Source: Pedobacter sp. | Lineage (GTDB): Bacteria; Desulfobacterota; Desulfuromonadia; Desulfuromonadales; Syntrophotaleaceae | DNA: 64,000 nt | Reading direction: 5' to 3' | NCBI GenBank assembly: GCA_050253415.1 | Contig: JBFWJC010000008.1 | Location: 54,499 to 118,498, forward strand | Shown: one piece after another, positions 19,501 to 28,500 of the stretch | Numbering within the stretch: the first letter of the stretch is position 1 | How the letters are laid out: each line of letters begins with the position of its first letter | Program-made: the position numbers

Positions 19501-22500
19501 GAAGGACTGATATTAACAAATTTATGTTACATATCAAGTAGACATTAGAAACTTACCAGACAGCTACCTCAGGTACTGACGCCTCCAAAAAGGCGGTACC
19601 CATAGCCCTATTGAAGAACGAACCAGGACGAAAAGGAAATGAACGAGACAAAAACGAGGGGGAAGAATAACGATGAAGCACACAAGGAGCCAGGACCAGC
19701 TATATGAAACCTTGTCGGCGAGCCTTTACAGAATATGCTTTTTACGGGCAACCGCCACGGCTTCCATGCGATTGTTGACTTCCAGCTTCTTAAAAATTCT
19801 TTGCACGTGCGTTTTGATGGTTTCGATACTGACAAAATTAATCTGGGCTATATTTTTCAATACACGGATTTCGGTCTTGGTCAGGTTATGCTCGCAACTG
19901 TCACCTTCCTCATCCTGCATTTGGCGCCACTTTATCGCAAGATTCAAAAGATAAGGCGAGTGACATTCTCTTCCCTCAGCAAAATCCTCAATAATCTTTA
20001 TCAGTTCATCAATTTTTGTATTTTTTGCGACATAACCGTTGGCTCCTTCGAGCATGGCCTCCTGAACATATTCTTTCTTGGTATAAGTGGACAGCACGAT
20101 GATCTTCAGATCCGGCAGTGTCTTGCGCAACACGCGGATGGCTTCTATACCTGACAACCCCGGCATATCAACATCCATAAGCACAACATCCGGCGGGTTT
20201 TCATTGATGGCATTGACCGCATCAAAACCGTTATCCGCTTCACCCACAATTTTGATGTGTTGCTTCGACTCGAGATACATACTCAAGCCGATACGCAGAA
20301 TGGGATGGTCATCGGCTATAAAAACCGTTACGGGTCTCGTTTCATTCATAGTCGGTCTCCCTTGGCACACTATATTCCTGACCGCTTGTAACAGGAATGC
20401 GAAAGCGAAACCGCCCACCCGTTACCTCAGCCCCGGATTCATCAGCATAGGGCGATTCCACCCATATTTCTCCGCCATGAGCTTCAACAACCATTTTGCT
20501 GAATGTGAGCCCCAATCCGACGCCACGACGTTCGTTGCCACGCTGTACACTCGTCGTATAAAACTTCTCAAAAATAAGGGCCTGTTTCTCTTTGTCTATA
20601 CCTTGCCCCTGGTCGTCAATGGTCACAAGTATACAATCCCCATGTTCCGGATCGGACAATTGCTCGGCCTTCACAAAAATTTCGCCTTCGGGAGGGCTGA
20701 AACGAATGGCGTTTTCCAGAAGATTGACACAGGTACGCTGAATACGACTCCAATCCGCCAACATCCGCACACCGGCACGACCGGGTTGGAAGGATATGTT
20801 GATTTTCTTGTCGTCGGCTGAAAATCCAACATGCCTGATACTCTCGACAAGCGTGGAATCCATGTCGCCGGGCACCTGGCAAAGATTAACACCCGCACAT
20901 TCATCCAGAAAAATATCAAGAAAGTTCGAAACCATACCGGATAACTTGTGAGTCGAATTCAGGGCCAGGGACACGAGATCGCCGCCCCTGTCGTTAAGAG
21001 AGCCAAGATGCCCGTCCAGCATCAACTCCAGCACCCTCTGGATGGACAAAATCGGGTTGCCCATGTCGTGGGTCAGCATGCCGATCAGGTCCTCCTTCAT
21101 CTTTTCTACTTTTTTTTCCTGGGTTACGTCCCGCAATACGGTCACATACCCCATAGCTTCCCGCTTGGTGAGAAAGATTTCCTGAAAGGAGGCATGGGCG
21201 TAAAAAATCTGGCCGTCGGGTTTCAGAACTTCGAAAACCGGCTGAGCGTCAATAATTTCCTGGTGATTTTTGCCAACCAGGTACTCTTTAAACGCTTCCG
21301 GCCTGGCAAAAAGAGAGAATATCGGTTGCCCGACAATAGAGGAGGGTTCACGGCCGAACATTTTGACCGTTGCTTTATTGATCAGAGTAACAATGCCGCC
21401 TACATCGGTCGATATGATGGCCTCGGAAACGCTGTTGATGATGTTATGCAGATTTTTCTGATAGGCCTTTTGCGACAGATACTTCTGAATAGCCAGAGAG
21501 CTGATGGTTTTAGCGATGGTGCACATGAGGTTCACCGCTGACTGCAGTCTCTGATAACTCATCACCGGCACTTCATGCAATGCCCTGAGGTATCCCGCAA
21601 TATCTTCGACACCGATTCGCTTGGCTGCGTCAATCGCTTCTTCAACGGAGAGGGGTTTTGTCAGGACCTGCCCCATCACCAACGTTGCGACATGATACCC
21701 CTCTACAATAATCGGGGTAGCGCTATCCATGAGACCGGCATTCAGACACTTATAAATAAAGGGCTTACCTATTTTCTTCCCTTCTTCACCACCGAACCTG
21801 TCGCTGGCATAGCACTTTGCCCGCCCTTCCGGGGTCGAACGGCAATAATCTTTACACAGTCGCGAAAAATTGTGCTCGCGCGTGATCGGCTGCCCGGTCA
21901 GATCGACCAAAACCGAAGCAACACGCGTCGCCTTGGTAAAGTCCCGAACGATCTCCTCCAGTACTTCCTTTTCAATCAGATCGAGGATTTGTATCTGCTG
22001 ACTCGCCATTCCAGCTCCTTAGTCCGCCAACTGAAGGTTTGACACCCCGCCGGCCAGATATCTTCCCATGAGTTATTGATAGCATGAGACCCACTACCGG
22101 CCAAAGTAAAATGTCGTTTACAGCATAGGGGTGACGCCGATTATCACTATTTCGGGGGACAAAATGAAGGATTGCGGGGGACAACCTGGAGGGGGTGACA
22201 TGCAAGTTCACTATTACGGGGGACAAATATAGCATCTTGTAGCGATTGTTATTCAGCCCTCCCTAACATACAAATAAGGTGCGCGCAAAAAGAAACGACC
22301 CGAATTCAGACTTTGCAAAGAAAGACGTACGTCAACCAATTATTTTATTTAATTCGCTACGTTCGTATCACATTTAAGGGCATCCAGGAAAGGGAAAAAC
22401 CATGGCTCCTTGGTCTGTAGACACGTTATTACTTTGCTTTGGTGGCGGTATCGTCGGTGCAGCTCTCGGCGGACTGTTTTCTTTCAGCATTTGCGGCCTG

Positions 22501-25500: not shown

Positions 25501-28500
25501 CCCGGACGGCCGCAAAAAAGGCACTCCTCTGGCCGACGGCGTTTCCCCCATCGGAGGTTTCGATATCTCCGGTCCGACCGCAACGGTTAACTCCGTCGCC
25601 AAGCTCGACCATGAAGTCACCTCCAACGGCACCCTGCTCAACCAGAAGTTCCATCCCAACGCCGTGAAGGGTGAAGAAGGTCTGCGTAACCTTATCGCCG
25701 TTACCGAAACCTACTTCAAAAATGGCGGGTTCCATGTGCAGTACAACGTCATCGACCGGAAAACCCTGGAGAAAGCCCAGGAAAAACCGGAAGAATTCGC
25801 CAGCCTGGTGGTTCGCGTAGCCGGCTACAGCGCCTTCTTTACCGCGCTGGATAAATCTCTGCAGGATGACATCATGTCCCGCACCGAGCAGGTCTTCTAA
25901 GCTGCTTATCTTGTTGTAACACTTGGGGGCCGGATACATCCGGATCCGGCCCCCGCCCCACCTGGTAATACGGTTAAACCGAACACCTGGAGAACAACCA
26001 TGAACTGGAGAGAAAAGGTCCTTGATTTTGACAACATCGGCGATCGTGGCGAAGGGCTGAAGGGATTGATTTTCGATGTTCAGAAGTTCGCTATCCACGA
26101 TGGCGGGGGTATCCGCACCAATGTTTTCCTTAAAGGATGCCCGCTGCAATGCCTGTGGTGCTCGAACCCTGAATCCCTGGCATCCAAGCCGGAAATCACC
26201 TTCGTGACCAACAACTGCATTGGCTGTGGCAAATGCCTGGAGGTATGTCCGGCAGGAGCCATCCGTCAAGGAGAAACAGCCGGTGAAGACATCATCATCG
26301 ACCGGGAGCGCTGCACCCTGTGCGGCCAGTGTGCAAAACACTGCTACGCAGGAGCCATCAACATTATCGGACGGTATGTTTCCGTTCCCGAACTGATGCA
26401 GATCATCGAGCGTGACCGCAAATTTTATGAGCAGAGCGGCGGCGGAGTCACCTTTTCAGGTGGGGAACCAACCGCACAGCCGGAATTCCTTAAAGCGGCC
26501 CTGGCAGAAATCCAGAAACGCGGTATTCACACTGCCATAGAAACCAGTTCACTTTTACCCTGGGATATTTACGTTTCGATCCTGAAGCACGTCGACCTGG
26601 TGCTGAGCGACATCAAGCACATGGACGATGCCGAGCATAAGCGCCTCACCGGGGTTTCCAACCAACTGATTCTCGATAATATTCGCAACATCTCCAAGCT
26701 CGGTATCCCGGTAAAGATTCGTCTGCCATTGATTCCCGGCATCAACGATTCCGACCGTAATCTCGAAGCCACCGCCGAATTTGTGGAGCAATTGAGCAAT
26801 GTACAGTCGCTCGACATTCTGCCCTATCACCGTCTGGGTGAAATGAAATACCGACAACTGGATCTCAGTTACCCCTTAAAGGGTGTGGAATCGCCAACGG
26901 TTGAACACGTTGAAGAGCGAATCCGCGCTCTCCGGGAAAGGGGATTAAACATTTCCGTCGGCGGGTAGCACCTGTTCCATCGTTTCACAGATACCATTTA
27001 ATTTTTTTATGAGTAGTTATTCCTCGCAAGTAACGATCTTTTTTATCTAGGAGGTAAAAGGATATGCCAACGTTCAAGCAACTATTCTGTGTTCTTGCCG
27101 CAGCCGCGACCCTGTTCGCGGCCTGCCCTGCTGATGCCGCTTTCGTTGTCGGAGGCAGTGACGGCTGGTCGTTCAGCACCGACGGCAACGTCAACCTGTT
27201 TTTGCGCTACACCACGGCCGACCAACGGCCGGACAATGTTCACAGCGCCTTTTATACCCTGTCCGATGACCAGGATTCCTTCCGTACCCGCAGCGGCTTT
27301 TTGCCCGGCGTACTGGCCTTCAACATCAAGGCACCGACCATGGGTGGACTCGACATGGCGGCACGGGTCGGCTTTTACCCCAATCCCCAAAATGGTAATA
27401 CCAAAAACAGCTTCAGCGGACAGATCGACCTGCGCGAGATCTTCTTCACTGTTGACGGCAACTTCGGCCAGTTCCTGGTCGGTAAAGCCTTCAGCTTGTT
27501 CCAGGGCCAGAACTGCCTGACCGGCATGTCGGTCTACGGATTCGGCATCGAAGGTGCTGTGTCCGGCGGCGGCGCAACCCTTGGCAACATCGGTTATGGC
27601 TACATCTACCCCCAGTTCAATGCCCAATTGCGTTACACCACCCCCGATATGAACGGCTTTAAACTGGCCGTTGCGATTCACGACCCCTCCCAGATTAATG
27701 GCTCGGGCGTCGGCCTCGATTCAAACGTTTACAATCCGTCCGCCGTTGAAACCAATACCCCGCGCTGGGAAGGCGAACTCTCCTATGCCGGCATCTATGC
27801 CGACGGTGACGGCACCTTCAAATCCTGGGTCAGCGGTCTGTACCAGAATGCCAAATTCGCCAAAGACAGCGCGTTTGATGGCGACGTGACCGCCTGGGGT
27901 GTAGCCGGTGGCGTACAGGTCGGCTACAAAGCCTACGAGTTGGTCGCTTCGGCCTTCACCGGCGAGGCCCTTGGTTCAACTCTGATGCTTGACTACGACT
28001 CTCTCGATTTTACCGGCGAAGAGCGTGAAGGTTACGGTTACCTGCTGCAAGGTACCTACACCTGGGATAACCGTTTCGGGAAAACCAAATTCGGCATCTG
28101 CTACGGCGCCAACCGCATGGAGGAAACCTCCGCCGAAAAGGTGGTCCGTGCCGCAACCGATAATGGCGAATTGAAACAACAAGACGTCATCACCGTGGGC
28201 GTTTTCCACGATATCAATCCTCACCTCAAATTGGTGCTGGAATACAATCGTGCCAATGTCGAATGGTTCAACGGCGGCAAACAGGAAGTCGACATCATCG
28301 GCCTGGGTACCTTCTTCATGTGGTAAGAAGTTAATCGGGTAACTCAAGTGGCCCGTTCCGGATTTTTTTCGGAACGGGCTACTTACTCTCGCGGTGCAAG
28401 GAAGCCACAATTCACCCGATATGCCTGCATCAGAAGCTCACGGACTCGAAGTCCCCCCACGCGTCATTGAGCTTATCGACACCGAAGAAAAACGCCCTAA

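Follow-up and report, generated by a model that had tools for sequence, protein, structure and literature searches.

The window analysed here is a stretch of 64,000 nucleotides, and all locus coordinates are positions along it. On its forward strand, at 22402..23367, lies a gene for a polytopic inner-membrane protein of 321 amino acids that belongs to DUF7973 (PF25928). Downstream of it, in the same orientation, are genes for a glycyl radical enzyme (GRE; 23501..25900), its radical-SAM activase (26000..26968) and an outer-membrane porin (27064..28326), an order that had been described in an earlier note on this DNA and that our ORF listing confirmed. The GRE is of the B12-independent glycerol/1,2-propanediol dehydratase type. 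It contains the Pfam domains PFL-like and Gly_radical and the motifs GIIGCVE, NGVGH and RVAGY, scores 849.5 bits against TIGR01774 (cut-off 678.2), and matches the diol dehydratase 5i2a at 885 bits and the B12-independent glycerol dehydratase of Clostridium butyricum (1r8w) over its full length at 1030 bits (residues 16–798). The earlier note had seen in it a PflD-like enzyme of unproven substrate, a description that the last match replaces. We place glycerol among the candidate solutes of the DUF7973 protein, and count this glycerol/diol dehydratase next to it as support for the channel reading developed below. The activase reaches 369.8 bits against TIGR02494 (cut-off 174.35) and has Radical_SAM and Fer4 domains. 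The porin is a member of a divergent Porin_4-related family; its translation begins like a signal peptide and ends in ...FFMW, its relatives carry PF13609 or the name [quoted passage not shown] (62% and 52% identity), and a cluster representative matches Porin_4 at 1.9e-8.

Divergent from the DUF7973 gene, on the reverse strand, lies the gene of a PocR-PAS histidine kinase (20342..22009; Pfam PocR 7.5e-51, PAS, HisKA and HATPase_c) whose PocR domain starts at residue 10. Its probable partner is a LuxR/NarL-type response regulator on the same reverse strand (19726..20418; receiver domain Response_reg 5.9e-29, GerE helix-turn-helix 2.1e-8); a 77-nt overlap of its ORF start with the kinase gene makes a later true start probable. 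A repeat search in the divergent promoter region detected a direct-repeat cluster (22128..22234, forward strand), in which TTNCGGGGGACAA occurs three times within two 36-nt repeats at a spacing of 64 nt. The window has three matches of TTNCGGGGGACAA, where 0.55 would be expected and 3 of 100 shuffles reached three, and all of them fall in this cluster; genome-wide, three of the eight sites of CGGGGGACAA are also located there. The cluster is a candidate operator for the response regulator.

The family assignment comes from the precomputed annotation, which gives PF25928.1 for the window protein and for all 120 matches listed; a Pfam set without the PF25928 model returned no match at E<=10. The family is rare in the phylum (5 of 401 sampled genomes), and this genome has four paralogues, with 100, 70, 57 and 49% identity to the window protein, each adjoining an alcohol or diol enzyme just as described earlier. 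The second paralogue precedes a second GRE with its activase and a porin, and a PocR kinase is encoded roughly 7 kb downstream. The third comes 547 nt after a gene for an Fe-dependent alcohol dehydrogenase (Fe-ADH) from which a porin gene diverges; on its other side are genes for DUF190, another Fe-ADH and an aldehyde dehydrogenase. The fourth stands 59 nt before a Zn-ADH gene. In total the genome encodes 4 Zn-ADH-like proteins, 12 Fe-ADHs and 3 GREs, and we calculate that the regions up to 5 kb from one of these genes make up about 5% of the genome, whereas four of four DUF7973 genes fall inside them. Porin paralogues occur at three of the four loci, and three of the four copies of this porin family in the genome adjoin DUF7973 genes.

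Gene context was surveyed at 82 loci, those of this genome among them. Clustering at 90% identity left 46 rows, two of which stem from a single split gene; the sample is biased to relatives of at least 48% identity and to plasmids. Within 5 kb, a GRE dehydratase is found in 8 of the 46 rows and a three-subunit B12-dependent diol dehydratase in 9 (accompanied by a reactivase in 8 and by BMC shell genes in 7), while Zn-ADH is found in 10, Fe-ADH in 8, PocR kinase in 10 and parts of acetoin dehydrogenase in 2–3. Where at least 2 kb are available on both sides, 24 of 26 rows hold an alcohol or diol enzyme; none was found in the well-flanked loci L012 and L077. In each of the nine B12 loci, DUF7973 precedes the gene of the dehydratase large subunit in the same orientation, and in four it comes after genes for a PocR kinase and a regulator. 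On the family tree, dehydratase-linked (17) and ADH/acetoin-linked (14) rows are separated by 3 label changes, compared with a mean of 10.5 after shuffling, and 0 of 1000 shuffles gave a value as low; B12- and GRE-linked rows are mixed with each other. These two dehydratases are unrelated enzymes having only their substrates in common, and the context of DUF7973 converges on substrates rather than on enzyme families.

Distant members (30–45% identity) were found on annotated plasmids at 12 places in 11 records. They include the orders glpK-DUF7973 and FAD oxidase-DUF7973-glpK-glpD in Microbacterium, an FGGY kinase gene overlapping DUF7973 by 8 nt near glpABC on pHV4 of Haloferax volcanii, a GlpA-like gene followed by FGGY kinase-DUF7973 in Natribaculum, and gldA-glpP-FGGY kinase-FAD oxidase with a DUF7973 fragment in Enterococcus gilvus. 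One of four Rhodococcus records shows ALDH-ADH-DUF7973 followed by 3-hydroxypropionyl-CoA-type genes, and Rubrobacter shows Zn-ADH, GlpR and DUF7973. GlpF is commonly encoded in glycerol-kinase operons, and in those of Actinomycetota, Enterococcus and haloarchaea a distant DUF7973 member stands at its usual position.

The earlier statement that no paper mentions DUF7973 holds for the name, but a 2012 paper covers the same genes in other words. In passages of that paper, Pcar_0329, Pcar_1398 and Pcar_2509 of Pelobacter (Syntrophotalea) carbinolicus, paralogous "multitransmembrane proteins" of 47–54% identity, are predicted to be channels; one lies 5' of glycerol dehydratase genes that have an outer-membrane paralogue at their 3' side, and one lies within an acetoin cluster (Aklujkar et al., 2012, PMC3543383). 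Going by that description, the same gene orders recur in the window and at locus L006; porin relatives are named as proteins of that species, and a complete same-genus genome (G405) holds three DUF7973 copies. The functional idea had accordingly been printed from gene context in 2012, and our agreement with it is not independent evidence. What those passages present is the gene context of a single genome, without a fold, oligomer, family name or wider survey, and the genome studied here differs by its fourth paralogue and its second GRE locus. For no DUF7973 member did the literature searched contain a result on transport, expression or knockout.

The AF2 model of the protein has a pLDDT of 97.1 and a pTM of 0.94. 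A fold search over 48,161 chains gave as its best eight matches four urea transporters (Z 6.7–6.0) and four Rh/Amt channels (Z 6.0–5.2), and the only other protein at Z >=5 among the matches listed was FhuB (Z 5.1, rmsd 17.1). In a second look, which covered 999 chains, the first 33 places were taken by 14 urea transporters (Z 7.0–7.6, 166–181 residues aligned, rmsd 4.0–5.1) and 19 Amt/Mep/Rh entries (Z 4.9–6.6); the next family followed at 4.5 and all others at 3.7 or less. The ranking claimed before was thereby reproduced, although not its best Z of 8.2. The likeness to urea transporters is modest, with Z below 8, about 175 of 321 residues (~55%) aligned and an rmsd above 4 Å, and helical bundles may attain such values through a common arrangement, as is cautioned for the comparison tool. 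Foldseek returned no match at E<=0.001 (best 0.046), and hhalign of DUF7973 against a 25-sequence Amt alignment gave E 0.13, with 0.3 for the reversed control. The homotrimer proposed earlier was again predicted with the better model (0.96 vs 0.00 for the best of three controls; at least 98% contact agreement between runs, partner pLDDT at least 94), its interface formed by a Gly-rich helix (7–54) against the neighbour's helix 178–206. The mark for this score was reached by 20 of 30 same-chain-pair and 1 of 23 single-chain structures, a calibration that is only rough here because our own alignment and three copies were used.

We regard DUF7973, with a probability of roughly two in three, as a homotrimeric inner-membrane facilitator (channel) for glycerol and short uncharged diols or hydroxy-ketones; likely candidates are glycerol, 1,2-propanediol, 1,3-propanediol, ethylene glycol and 2,3-butanediol/acetoin. 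The channel-like uptake of diols and alcohols put forward in the earlier note is supported in that its lines of evidence were reproduced and three independent ones were added; glycerol joins its candidate solutes. The independent lines come from the linkage to both B12 and GRE dehydratases, the glycerol-kinase operons and a genome without MIP/GlpF/PduF; new observations are the relatives directly before B12-dependent diol dehydratases, the distant members in glycerol-kinase operons, the missing MIP/GlpF gene and the position of both DUF190 genes beside DUF7973 genes.

Urea transporters form trimers in which each protomer has a pore of its own and consists of two homologous halves. The nearest folds belong to this group (UT/SLC14; dvUT of Desulfovibrio vulgaris, 3k3f, and human UT-B, 6qd5), with model residues ~31–321 collinear, a similar length (urea transporters have about 330–350 aa), a predicted trimer and a presumed solute that is likewise small, uncharged and polar. 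On the other hand no sequence homology was found, no urea-related gene was seen among the neighbour clusters surveyed, and the conserved His/Asp set of DUF7973 is not known from urea transporters. Amt/Mep/Rh channels, the second-nearest fold, share the predicted trimer, and H63 and H254/H255 take roughly matching half positions in an alignment that is non-significant there; again no sequence homology was found. The protomer helices are predicted to be arranged most like those of these two groups. A further likeness, to Amt-GlnK and SbtA-SbtB, is the PII-like DUF190 gene directly downstream in part of the family. The genome's only two DUF190 genes follow DUF7973 genes at distances of 0.1 and 3.1 kb; in the survey DUF190 is at most 200 nt away in 7 of the 46 rows, and one further row has it at 3.1 kb, these rows all being ADH-linked or unlabelled. 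The DUF190 model matches PII-like proteins (best 2dcl and 1o51), then SbtB and GlnK1, with 14 matches at E<=0.001, and an invariant CCxxC...C motif occupies the loop corresponding by position to the T-loop. DUF190 is a PII-like family in its own right. SbtB and GlnK1 both regulate membrane transporters, and by analogy DUF190 may gate the DUF7973 channel in the ADH-linked branch as GlnK gates AmtB. Fold, trimer and a neighbour recalling GlnK might also suggest a true urea or ammonia channel, which we find hardly credible: none of the 76 neighbour clusters common to at least two loci is a urease or nitrogen-assimilation family, the genome already has three ordinary Amt genes, and the protein matches neither UT nor Amt families in sequence.

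For the facilitator reading, the closest functional parallel is GlpF/PduF (MIP, PF00230), with which DUF7973 shares the position beside glycerol kinase and a presumed facilitated diffusion of glycerol or propanediol. In B12 loci it is placed between the PocR-type regulator and the shell/dehydratase genes, the position of pduF in Salmonella. MIP proteins are tetramers, whereas DUF7973 is a predicted trimer without sequence match to them and without the NPA motif, and aquaporins did not appear among the matches listed in the fold searches. The genome, which is 100% complete, has no MIP/GlpF/PduF gene, while 9 of 14 control genomes have one; since MIP is missing in 5 of 5 relatives (two of them without DUF7973) and present in 2 of 4 other DUF7973-bearing genomes, this absence is a lineage trait and not a complement of DUF7973. 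In the window, the solute would pass the outer membrane through the porin and the inner membrane through DUF7973 to reach the GRE glycerol/diol dehydratase with its activase; sensing of the diol and induction of the operon would fall to the cytoplasmic PocR kinase together with the LuxR-type regulator. The movement would be down a gradient upheld by the adjoining dehydratase, dehydrogenase or kinase consuming the solute. The reverse emphasis, a valve mainly releasing what the neighbouring enzymes produce (for instance 1,3-propanediol, propanol or ethanol, or else toxic aldehydes), would suit the several product-forming contexts, a PII-like gate for controlled release, and the third paralogue's Fe-ADH, which matches the 1,3-propanediol dehydrogenase cluster of PMC3543383. 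We think such a main role improbable, as the glycerol-kinase operons and the induction logic of the PocR diol sensor point to substrate entry; the co-encoded porins are compatible with either direction, and because channels work both ways this is a matter of emphasis and no true alternative.

H254, H294, H298, D300, W175 and W178 had been called invariant, yet in a 67-sequence alignment only G16, G23, D300 and P302 are. D300 (67/67) thus stands, H254 (63/67), H298 (59/67) and W175 (56/67) are kept in most sequences, and H294 and W178 fall below 70%. With H63 (52/67), D91 (56/67), D131 (57/67) and H255 (52/67), the residues H254, H298 and D300 make up a conserved polar set that is odd for a neutral-solute channel and could reflect proton coupling or a metal site. 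Together with E285 the set is partly membrane-embedded, as is typical of proton-coupling sites, and active uptake would be an advantage in scavenging the dilute diols of sediments, so that a proton-coupled symporter for the same solutes can be considered. It seems unlikely to us in view of closest folds that are channels rather than carriers, of the small, predicted trimeric protein with its rigid packing of Gly-rich helices, and of neighbouring enzymes that trap the solute metabolically, as happens in the GlpF/GlpK and PduF systems. If the protein offers no solute pathway at all, it could be a metallo-enzyme of the membrane, supply a metal or cofactor, or serve the PocR kinase as a membrane partner. 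Its H...HxD-PP motif and further conserved His would fit such roles; every neighbouring enzyme depends on a metal or cofactor (Fe, Zn, B12, Fe-S), and the sensory domain of the kinase begins already at residue 10. We give little credence to these roles: the partner enzymes differ in cofactors and share substrates, 8–15 of 67 sequences have other residues in place of H63, H255 and H298, as would hardly be expected of an essential metal or haem ligand, PocR kinase is near in only 10 of 46 rows and the glycerol-kinase operons require no such partner, and no enzyme or cytochrome fold exceeded Z 4.5 in the second look.

Finally, we propose that the ~320-aa protomer arose partly by internal duplication. 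The first half of the proposed repeat gave E 0.14, equal to the control, and residues 104–148 align with 270–317 at an hhalign E of 4e-5 (reversed control 0.033), placing D131 opposite the invariant D300.

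Among the major substrates of anaerobic metabolism are glycerol and short diols, which also serve as industrial feedstocks, for example in 1,3-propanediol production and glycol waste treatment; facilitators of the MIP family, the GlpF/PduF aquaglyceroporins, are usually held responsible for their uptake. Many microbes that use glycerol or diols carry no MIP gene, including the genome studied here, its relatives, and Haloferax volcanii. We propose that the membrane protein DUF7973 (PF25928) forms a trimer that facilitates the entry of glycerol and short diols, with metabolic trapping by an adjacent enzyme, and we put the probability of this reading at roughly 0.65. 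The solute would enter through the DUF7973 trimer and would then be trapped metabolically by the enzyme encoded next to it. DUF7973 is regarded here as a plausible, putative and widespread non-MIP route for glycerol and diols. If this is true, a non-MIP facilitator family fills the entry gap and provides a new part for strain engineers.

The locus in the window consists of two genes on the minus strand, a LuxR-type response regulator (19726–20418) and a PocR-PAS histidine kinase (20342–22009), followed on the plus strand by the gene of the very hydrophobic, 321-aa DUF7973 protein (22402–23367), a glycyl radical enzyme (GRE) of 799 aa (23501–25900), its radical-SAM activase (26000–26968), and a divergent porin of 420 aa (27064–28326). 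The names of the regulator, the kinase, the GRE and the activase are supported by Pfam or NCBIfam. The porin has a signal-peptide-like start and the C-terminus FFMW, and its relatives carry PF13609 or the name “outer membrane channel, putative” from Syntrophotalea carbinolica. The closest named relatives of the locus belong to Pelobacter/Syntrophotalea and other Desulfuromonadales. PF25928.1 is assigned to the window protein and to all 120 listed relatives in the precomputed Pfam column of the homologue search, and one cluster mate carries the name “DUF7973 domain-containing protein”. The four plus-strand genes are separated by gaps of 133, 99, and 95 nt. Co-transcription of these genes is suggested by strand and short gaps only, because a scan of 19500–28800 gave 9 promoter-like sites (6.7 expected) and 10 terminator-like sites (11.1 expected), in both cases no better than shuffled sequence.

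Between the PocR kinase and DUF7973 genes, the element TTNCGGGGGACAA occurs three times inside two 36-nt direct repeats lying 64 nt apart (22128–22234), and three of the eight CGGGGGACAA sites in the whole genome fall in this interval, a putative operator of the LuxR-type regulator. The repeats at the paralogous locus of the second DUF7973 copy (L005) differ from these and include a 25-nt palindrome at 8357–8406. Antisense to the whole GRE gene runs an open frame of 951 aa (23486–26341, minus strand) that is conserved in four loci and has no Pfam match; it is a shadow ORF longer than the real gene, and it misleads gene calling by longest ORF. Comparable shadow ORFs lie opposite the large-subunit genes of B12 dehydratases, in clusters of 433, 452, and 482 aa. 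Just upstream of the two-component genes is a lysine 2,3-aminomutase (17586–18890, minus strand; AblA equivalog at 762 bits, cut-off 525), which bears no relation to the DUF7973 finding.

The earlier note described the GRE by its 41% identity to E. coli PflD and called its substrate unproven. PflD is in fact the more distant comparison at only 630 bits, while the B12-independent glycerol dehydratase of Clostridium butyricum (1r8w) matches at 1030 bits over residues 16–798, and a score of 885 bits is reached with 5i2a, the diol dehydratase from Roseburia. The enzyme passes TIGR01774, the PFL2/glycerol-dehydratase subfamily model (849.5 bits, cut-off 678.2), no equivalog model scored above its own cut-off against it, and the motifs NGVGH, GIIGCVE (the catalytic Cys-x-Glu loop), and RVAGY (the glycyl-radical motif) are present. 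In the alignment, two pocket positions that are Tyr (PMY) and Ser (YPSS) in the glycerol enzyme are Phe (PMF) and Ala (YPAS) in the window GRE, and Phe and Val (YPVS) in the second GRE paralogue, the latter pair matching the propanediol enzyme. In work on the Roseburia propanediol dehydratase structure, these two positions are reported to contact the third hydroxyl of glycerol. Judged from its sequence, the window GRE is a glycerol/1,2-diol dehydratase.

The genome (4.10 Mb, 100% complete) does contain the four DUF7973 genes claimed previously, at 100, 70, 57, and 49% identity to the window protein, and each was found beside the alcohol- or diol-related genes that had been named for it. Copy 2 repeats the order of the window (DUF7973, GRE, activase, porin) with a PocR kinase further downstream; copy 3 lies between two Fe-alcohol dehydrogenase (Fe-ADH) genes, in a locus that also encodes aldehyde dehydrogenases, a porin in divergent orientation, and, 90 nt downstream, a DUF190 protein; and the Zn-ADH gene at copy 4 begins 59 nt after the DUF7973 gene. 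The genome has 4 Zn-ADH-like, 12 Fe-ADH, and 3 GRE genes, and by our own arithmetic about 5% of it lies within 5 kb of an ADH or GRE gene, yet all four DUF7973 genes do so. Of the genome's four porin-family genes, three lie in DUF7973 loci, as do its two DUF190 genes. The third GRE (C1:1263588–1266023) is more distant, with a family-HMM score of 621 bits where the other two reach 1700 and 1620, and neither it nor the third PocR-type kinase (C1:1306127–1307797) has a DUF7973 gene beside it. At the copy 2 locus, a B12-binding radical-SAM protein of 590 aa (L005:1738–3510, plus strand) is encoded about 5 kb upstream of the DUF7973 gene and about 6 kb before the GRE. The Pelobacter (Syntrophotalea) carbinolicus genome paper (Aklujkar et al., 2012; PMC3543383) suggests a distant GRE of that organism as a possible ethylene glycol dehydratase, and links paralogous radical-SAM oxidoreductases, of substrate not known, to such clusters.

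The gene context was followed across 82 loci (4 from this genome, 13 from species genomes, and 65 from metagenome contigs; a biased sample). A family HMM found 69 DUF7973 ORFs in them, and grouping at 90% identity reduced these to 46 rows, two of which come from a single split gene. All ORFs of at least 100 aa within 5 kb were clustered, and the 76 clusters seen in at least two loci were scanned against Pfam. Among the 46 rows, Zn-ADH and PocR kinase each occur in 10, the large, medium, and small subunits of B12-dependent diol dehydratase in 9, the diol dehydratase reactivase in 8, and BMC shell genes in 7; GRE dehydratase, Fe-ADH, and DUF190 occur in 8 each, a LuxR-type regulator in 7, a sigma-54 activator in 6, a porin in 5, SDR and aldehyde dehydrogenase in 4 each, and parts of acetoin dehydrogenase in 2–3. 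When only rows flanked by at least 2 kb on both sides are considered, 24 of 26 have dehydratase, dehydrogenase, or acetoin-dehydrogenase genes, and the well-flanked rows L012 and L077 have none of these. DUF7973 stands directly upstream of GRE dehydratases or of B12 dehydratases, which are unrelated proteins acting on the same diols; a gene so placed is tied to the substrate rather than to the enzyme. An exit valve for the products of these pathways would be another reading of such neighbourhoods, to which we give little weight. Four B12 loci share the order PocR kinase, regulator, DUF7973, shell gene, dehydratase, and the slot of DUF7973 is the one that pduF occupies in the pdu locus of Salmonella. 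In Zn-ADH-linked loci (L007:13525–14490 and four related ones), a PF13557 MetA-pathway outer-membrane protein replaces the Porin_4-like paralogue, and DUF6506, Glyoxalase_4, and a sigma-54 activator recur.

A tree of 39 surveyed DUF7973 proteins, with five distant members as outgroup, contains an ADH/acetoin-linked clade of 14 rows (SH-aLRT 97) and a second group of weaker support (86) that holds all nine B12-linked and five of the seven GRE-linked rows. A two-state label changes three times on this tree against a shuffled mean of 10.5, and none of 1000 shuffles was as low; since related sequences share labels, this result describes clustering and not independent events. The family is rare, being present in 5 of 401 sampled genomes of the phylum, and comprises 302 representatives at 50% identity in a set of 1.84 billion proteins.

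Distant members extend these contexts to glycerol operons. The window protein as query found no match in annotated plasmid records, and two distant DUF7973 members as queries found 12 places in 11 records at 30–46% identity. One Microbacterium copy lies in the order epoxide hydrolase, haloalcohol dehalogenase, glpK, DUF7973, and another in the order FAD oxidase, DUF7973, glpK, glycerol-3-phosphate dehydrogenase. On pHV4 of Haloferax volcanii an FGGY kinase gene overlaps DUF7973 by 8 nt with glpABC a few genes away, and in Natribaculum the order is GlpA-like gene, FGGY kinase, DUF7973, MFS. Enterococcus gilvus has glycerol dehydrogenase, glpP, FGGY kinase, FAD oxidase, and a DUF7973 fragment of 161 aa; Rubrobacter has Zn-ADH, a GlpR-type regulator, DUF7973, and transketolase with an FGGY kinase nearby. 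In Rhodococcus (one of four records viewed) the order is aldehyde dehydrogenase, NDMA-dependent ADH, DUF7973, enoyl-CoA hydratase, AMP-binding protein, acryloyl-CoA reductase, and Haladaptatus has DUF7973 with no clear pattern of gene order. A membrane protein within the glycerol-kinase operon is the classic position of GlpF, and distant DUF7973 members hold such a position. As background, and not counted as evidence, glycerol operons of haloarchaea are described with a putative facilitator beside glpK. In the literature consulted on glycerol in Haloferax volcanii, no mention of a facilitator gene was found.

No MIP gene was found in the genome of the window, while 9 of 14 control genomes have one; Haloferax volcanii, itself a control, is not among the nine. 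This absence fits a stand-in role for DUF7973, though as no strict complement. A simple replacement of MIP by DUF7973 was rejected, since all five relatives searched have no MIP gene, including two that also have no DUF7973, and MIP is present in two of four further genomes of the phylum that carry DUF7973. The protein itself gave no Pfam match to PF00230 at E ≤ 10 and contains no NPA motif, of which MIP proteins have two; its likeness to GlpF and PduF is one of proposed working and functional analogy only, not of family. A 2025 paper on archaeal glycerol metabolism (PMC11962113) states that GlpF homologues are rarer than glycerol kinases in Archaea and suggests alternative transporters.

The AlphaFold2 model of the window protein (pLDDT 97.1, pTM 0.94; 67-sequence alignment) has about 10 membrane helices, two of which are short (68–81 and 254–267) and are each preceded by a conserved Pro/His motif. 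As reported before, Foldseek returned nothing at E ≤ 0.001, the best row being a urea transporter (E 0.046, probability 0.98). The earlier note had also seen a likeness to urea transporters and then to Amt/Rh channels; the ranking recurred in both of our VIA-align searches, with urea transporters at Z 6.0–7.6, and no link in sequence was found. Against 48,161 chains, the top eight places were shared by urea transporters (Z 6.7, 6.3, 6.2, 6.0) and Rh/Amt channels (6.0–5.2), four of each. In a second look at 999 chains, the first 33 were 14 urea transporters (Z 7.0–7.6) and 19 Amt/Mep/Rh proteins (Z 4.9–6.6), after which Z falls to 4.5 and then to 3.7 or less. The urea transporter alignments cover 166–181 of the 321 residues of the model at an rmsd of 4.0–5.1, collinear from about 31 to 321, with Z below 8, in the range that VIA-align calls common for helical proteins. 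What speaks for a real likeness is that the head of the ranking consists entirely of a single structural class, clear of the rest. In sequence, no match to urea transporters (PF03253) or to any other Pfam family was found at E ≤ 10 (in a Pfam set without PF25928), a PDB sequence search gave chance rows only (methionine gamma-lyase, E 0.2–0.3), and an Atlas search of named clusters outside PF25928 gave no usable match. For Amt/Mep/Rh (PF00909) there was likewise no Pfam match, and hhalign of 67 DUF7973 sequences against 25 Amt sequences from relatives gave E 0.13 and probability 0.5%, with a reversed control at E 0.3. DUF7973 thus looks most like urea transporters without being a member of their family, and a true urea or ammonia channel is a reading we find scarcely credible. 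A role other than transport altogether is also improbable in our estimate.

Residues 104–148 resemble 270–317, the last two helices (a hairpin) of each half (E 4e-5, reversed control 0.033), which aligns D131 with the invariant D300; between the earlier portions of the halves no significant repeat was found (E 0.14 against a control of 0.12). The urea transporter feature compared here is the presence of two homologous halves. Conserved histidines are present at H63 and H254/H255, the Amt feature compared being the pore-lining twin histidines. A reading of the histidines as haem ligands of a cytochrome b was set aside, as they are replaced in 4–15 of 67 sequences and no redox partner recurs in the contexts. 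The trimer predicted previously, a homotrimer being also the form of urea transporters, was reproduced, with a score of 0.96 in all three runs, 0.00 for the best of three controls, contact agreement of at least 98%, and partner pLDDT of at least 94. Of proteins solved as one-chain pairs, 20 of 30 attained this mark, as did 1 of 23 solved as single chains, a calibration that is rough here given our own alignment and the use of three copies. The predicted interface joins the Gly-rich helix 7–54 of one protomer with helix 178–206 of the next, and its best-defined pairs are antiparallel (14 with 194/195, 17–18 with 190–192, 21 with 188). H63, D131, H254, H255, H298, and D300 are absent from the listed interface, which leaves these conserved polar residues available to line some internal feature of each protomer. 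Proton-coupled uptake of glycerol and short diols is unlikely in our view, though not negligible.

DUF190, a neighbour of DUF7973 in the sister loci, is represented by two genes in the genome, each of them downstream of a DUF7973 gene. In the survey DUF190 is on the same strand within 200 nt of DUF7973 in seven rows and at 3.1 kb in one; by label, it occurs in 6 of 14 ADH-labelled, 2 of 8 unlabelled, and none of 17 dehydratase-labelled rows. The two proteins of the genome match PF02641 at 95.3 and 89.9 bits (cut-off 23.4), and a sequence search with the DUF190 protein found 1o51 and 2dcl at E of about 3e-11. A model with pLDDT 71.9 finds 2dcl/1o51 (E 2e-7), SbtB (1.5e-4), and GlnK1 (3.4e-4) among 14 matches at E ≤ 0.001, and with the family match and the predicted PII-type beta-alpha-beta fold the neighbour qualifies as a PII-like protein. 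SbtB and GlnK both act on trimeric membrane transport proteins. The DUF190 proteins beside DUF7973, at L006:10365–10730 (plus strand) and in six relatives, share an invariant four-cysteine motif, GFGFCCPxCRT...SxCQP, located in a low-confidence loop (54–79) between the second and third strands that by position would be the counterpart of the PII T-loop; the motif may be a metal or redox-sensing site.

Tentatively, and with more doubt than confidence, we suggest that DUF7973 represents a third structural solution for glycerol and diol facilitation, unrelated to aquaglyceroporins and derived from or converging on the urea transporter/Amt architecture, across Bacteria and haloarchaea, with one branch being a DUF190 channel-plus-PII module that gates alcohol and diol carbon flux. 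Such a module would be analogous to AmtB-GlnK and SbtA-SbtB, and would gate carbon rather than nitrogen or bicarbonate. The gating by DUF190 might perhaps respond to nucleotides, or to redox state through the four-cysteine loop. Should the association with DUF190 be borne out, the trimeric membrane proteins under PII-type gating would come to include some for carbon substrates.

A literature search for the word DUF7973 returned no paper, in agreement with what had been stated before. The functional hypothesis is nonetheless already 14 years old and, in Aklujkar et al. (2012; BMC Genomics 13:690), rests on the same kind of context argument; that paper shows the gene orders of the window and of the DUF190-bearing L006 type, and describes three paralogous proteins (Pcar_1395, Pcar_2512, and Pcar_3009) as outer-membrane routes of P. 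carbinolicus. In the literature searched, no test of the idea was found, nor, apart from that paper, any publication with those Pcar locus tags or with DUF190, GlnK, and a channel together. The earlier note added the fold likeness and the trimer to the 2012 idea. The present analysis adds the contexts with B12 dehydratases and glycerol kinases, seen across phyla and in archaea, a corrected identity for the GRE, a partial internal repeat, the division of the family into clades, and a check on the PII-like fold of DUF190.

Broken DUF7973 genes were also observed. Plasmid pCR1A of Enterococcus gilvus (L129) carries, at 5926–6411, an N-terminal fragment that ends the glycerol operon and is followed by a glucosaminidase-domain gene. 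The gene is split into two ORFs on the metagenome contig L068, and is in two pieces with an internal TGA in a genome of the same genus (G404 C1:586298–587253). One DUF7973 cluster at 90% identity also contains fragments of 125 and 211 aa.
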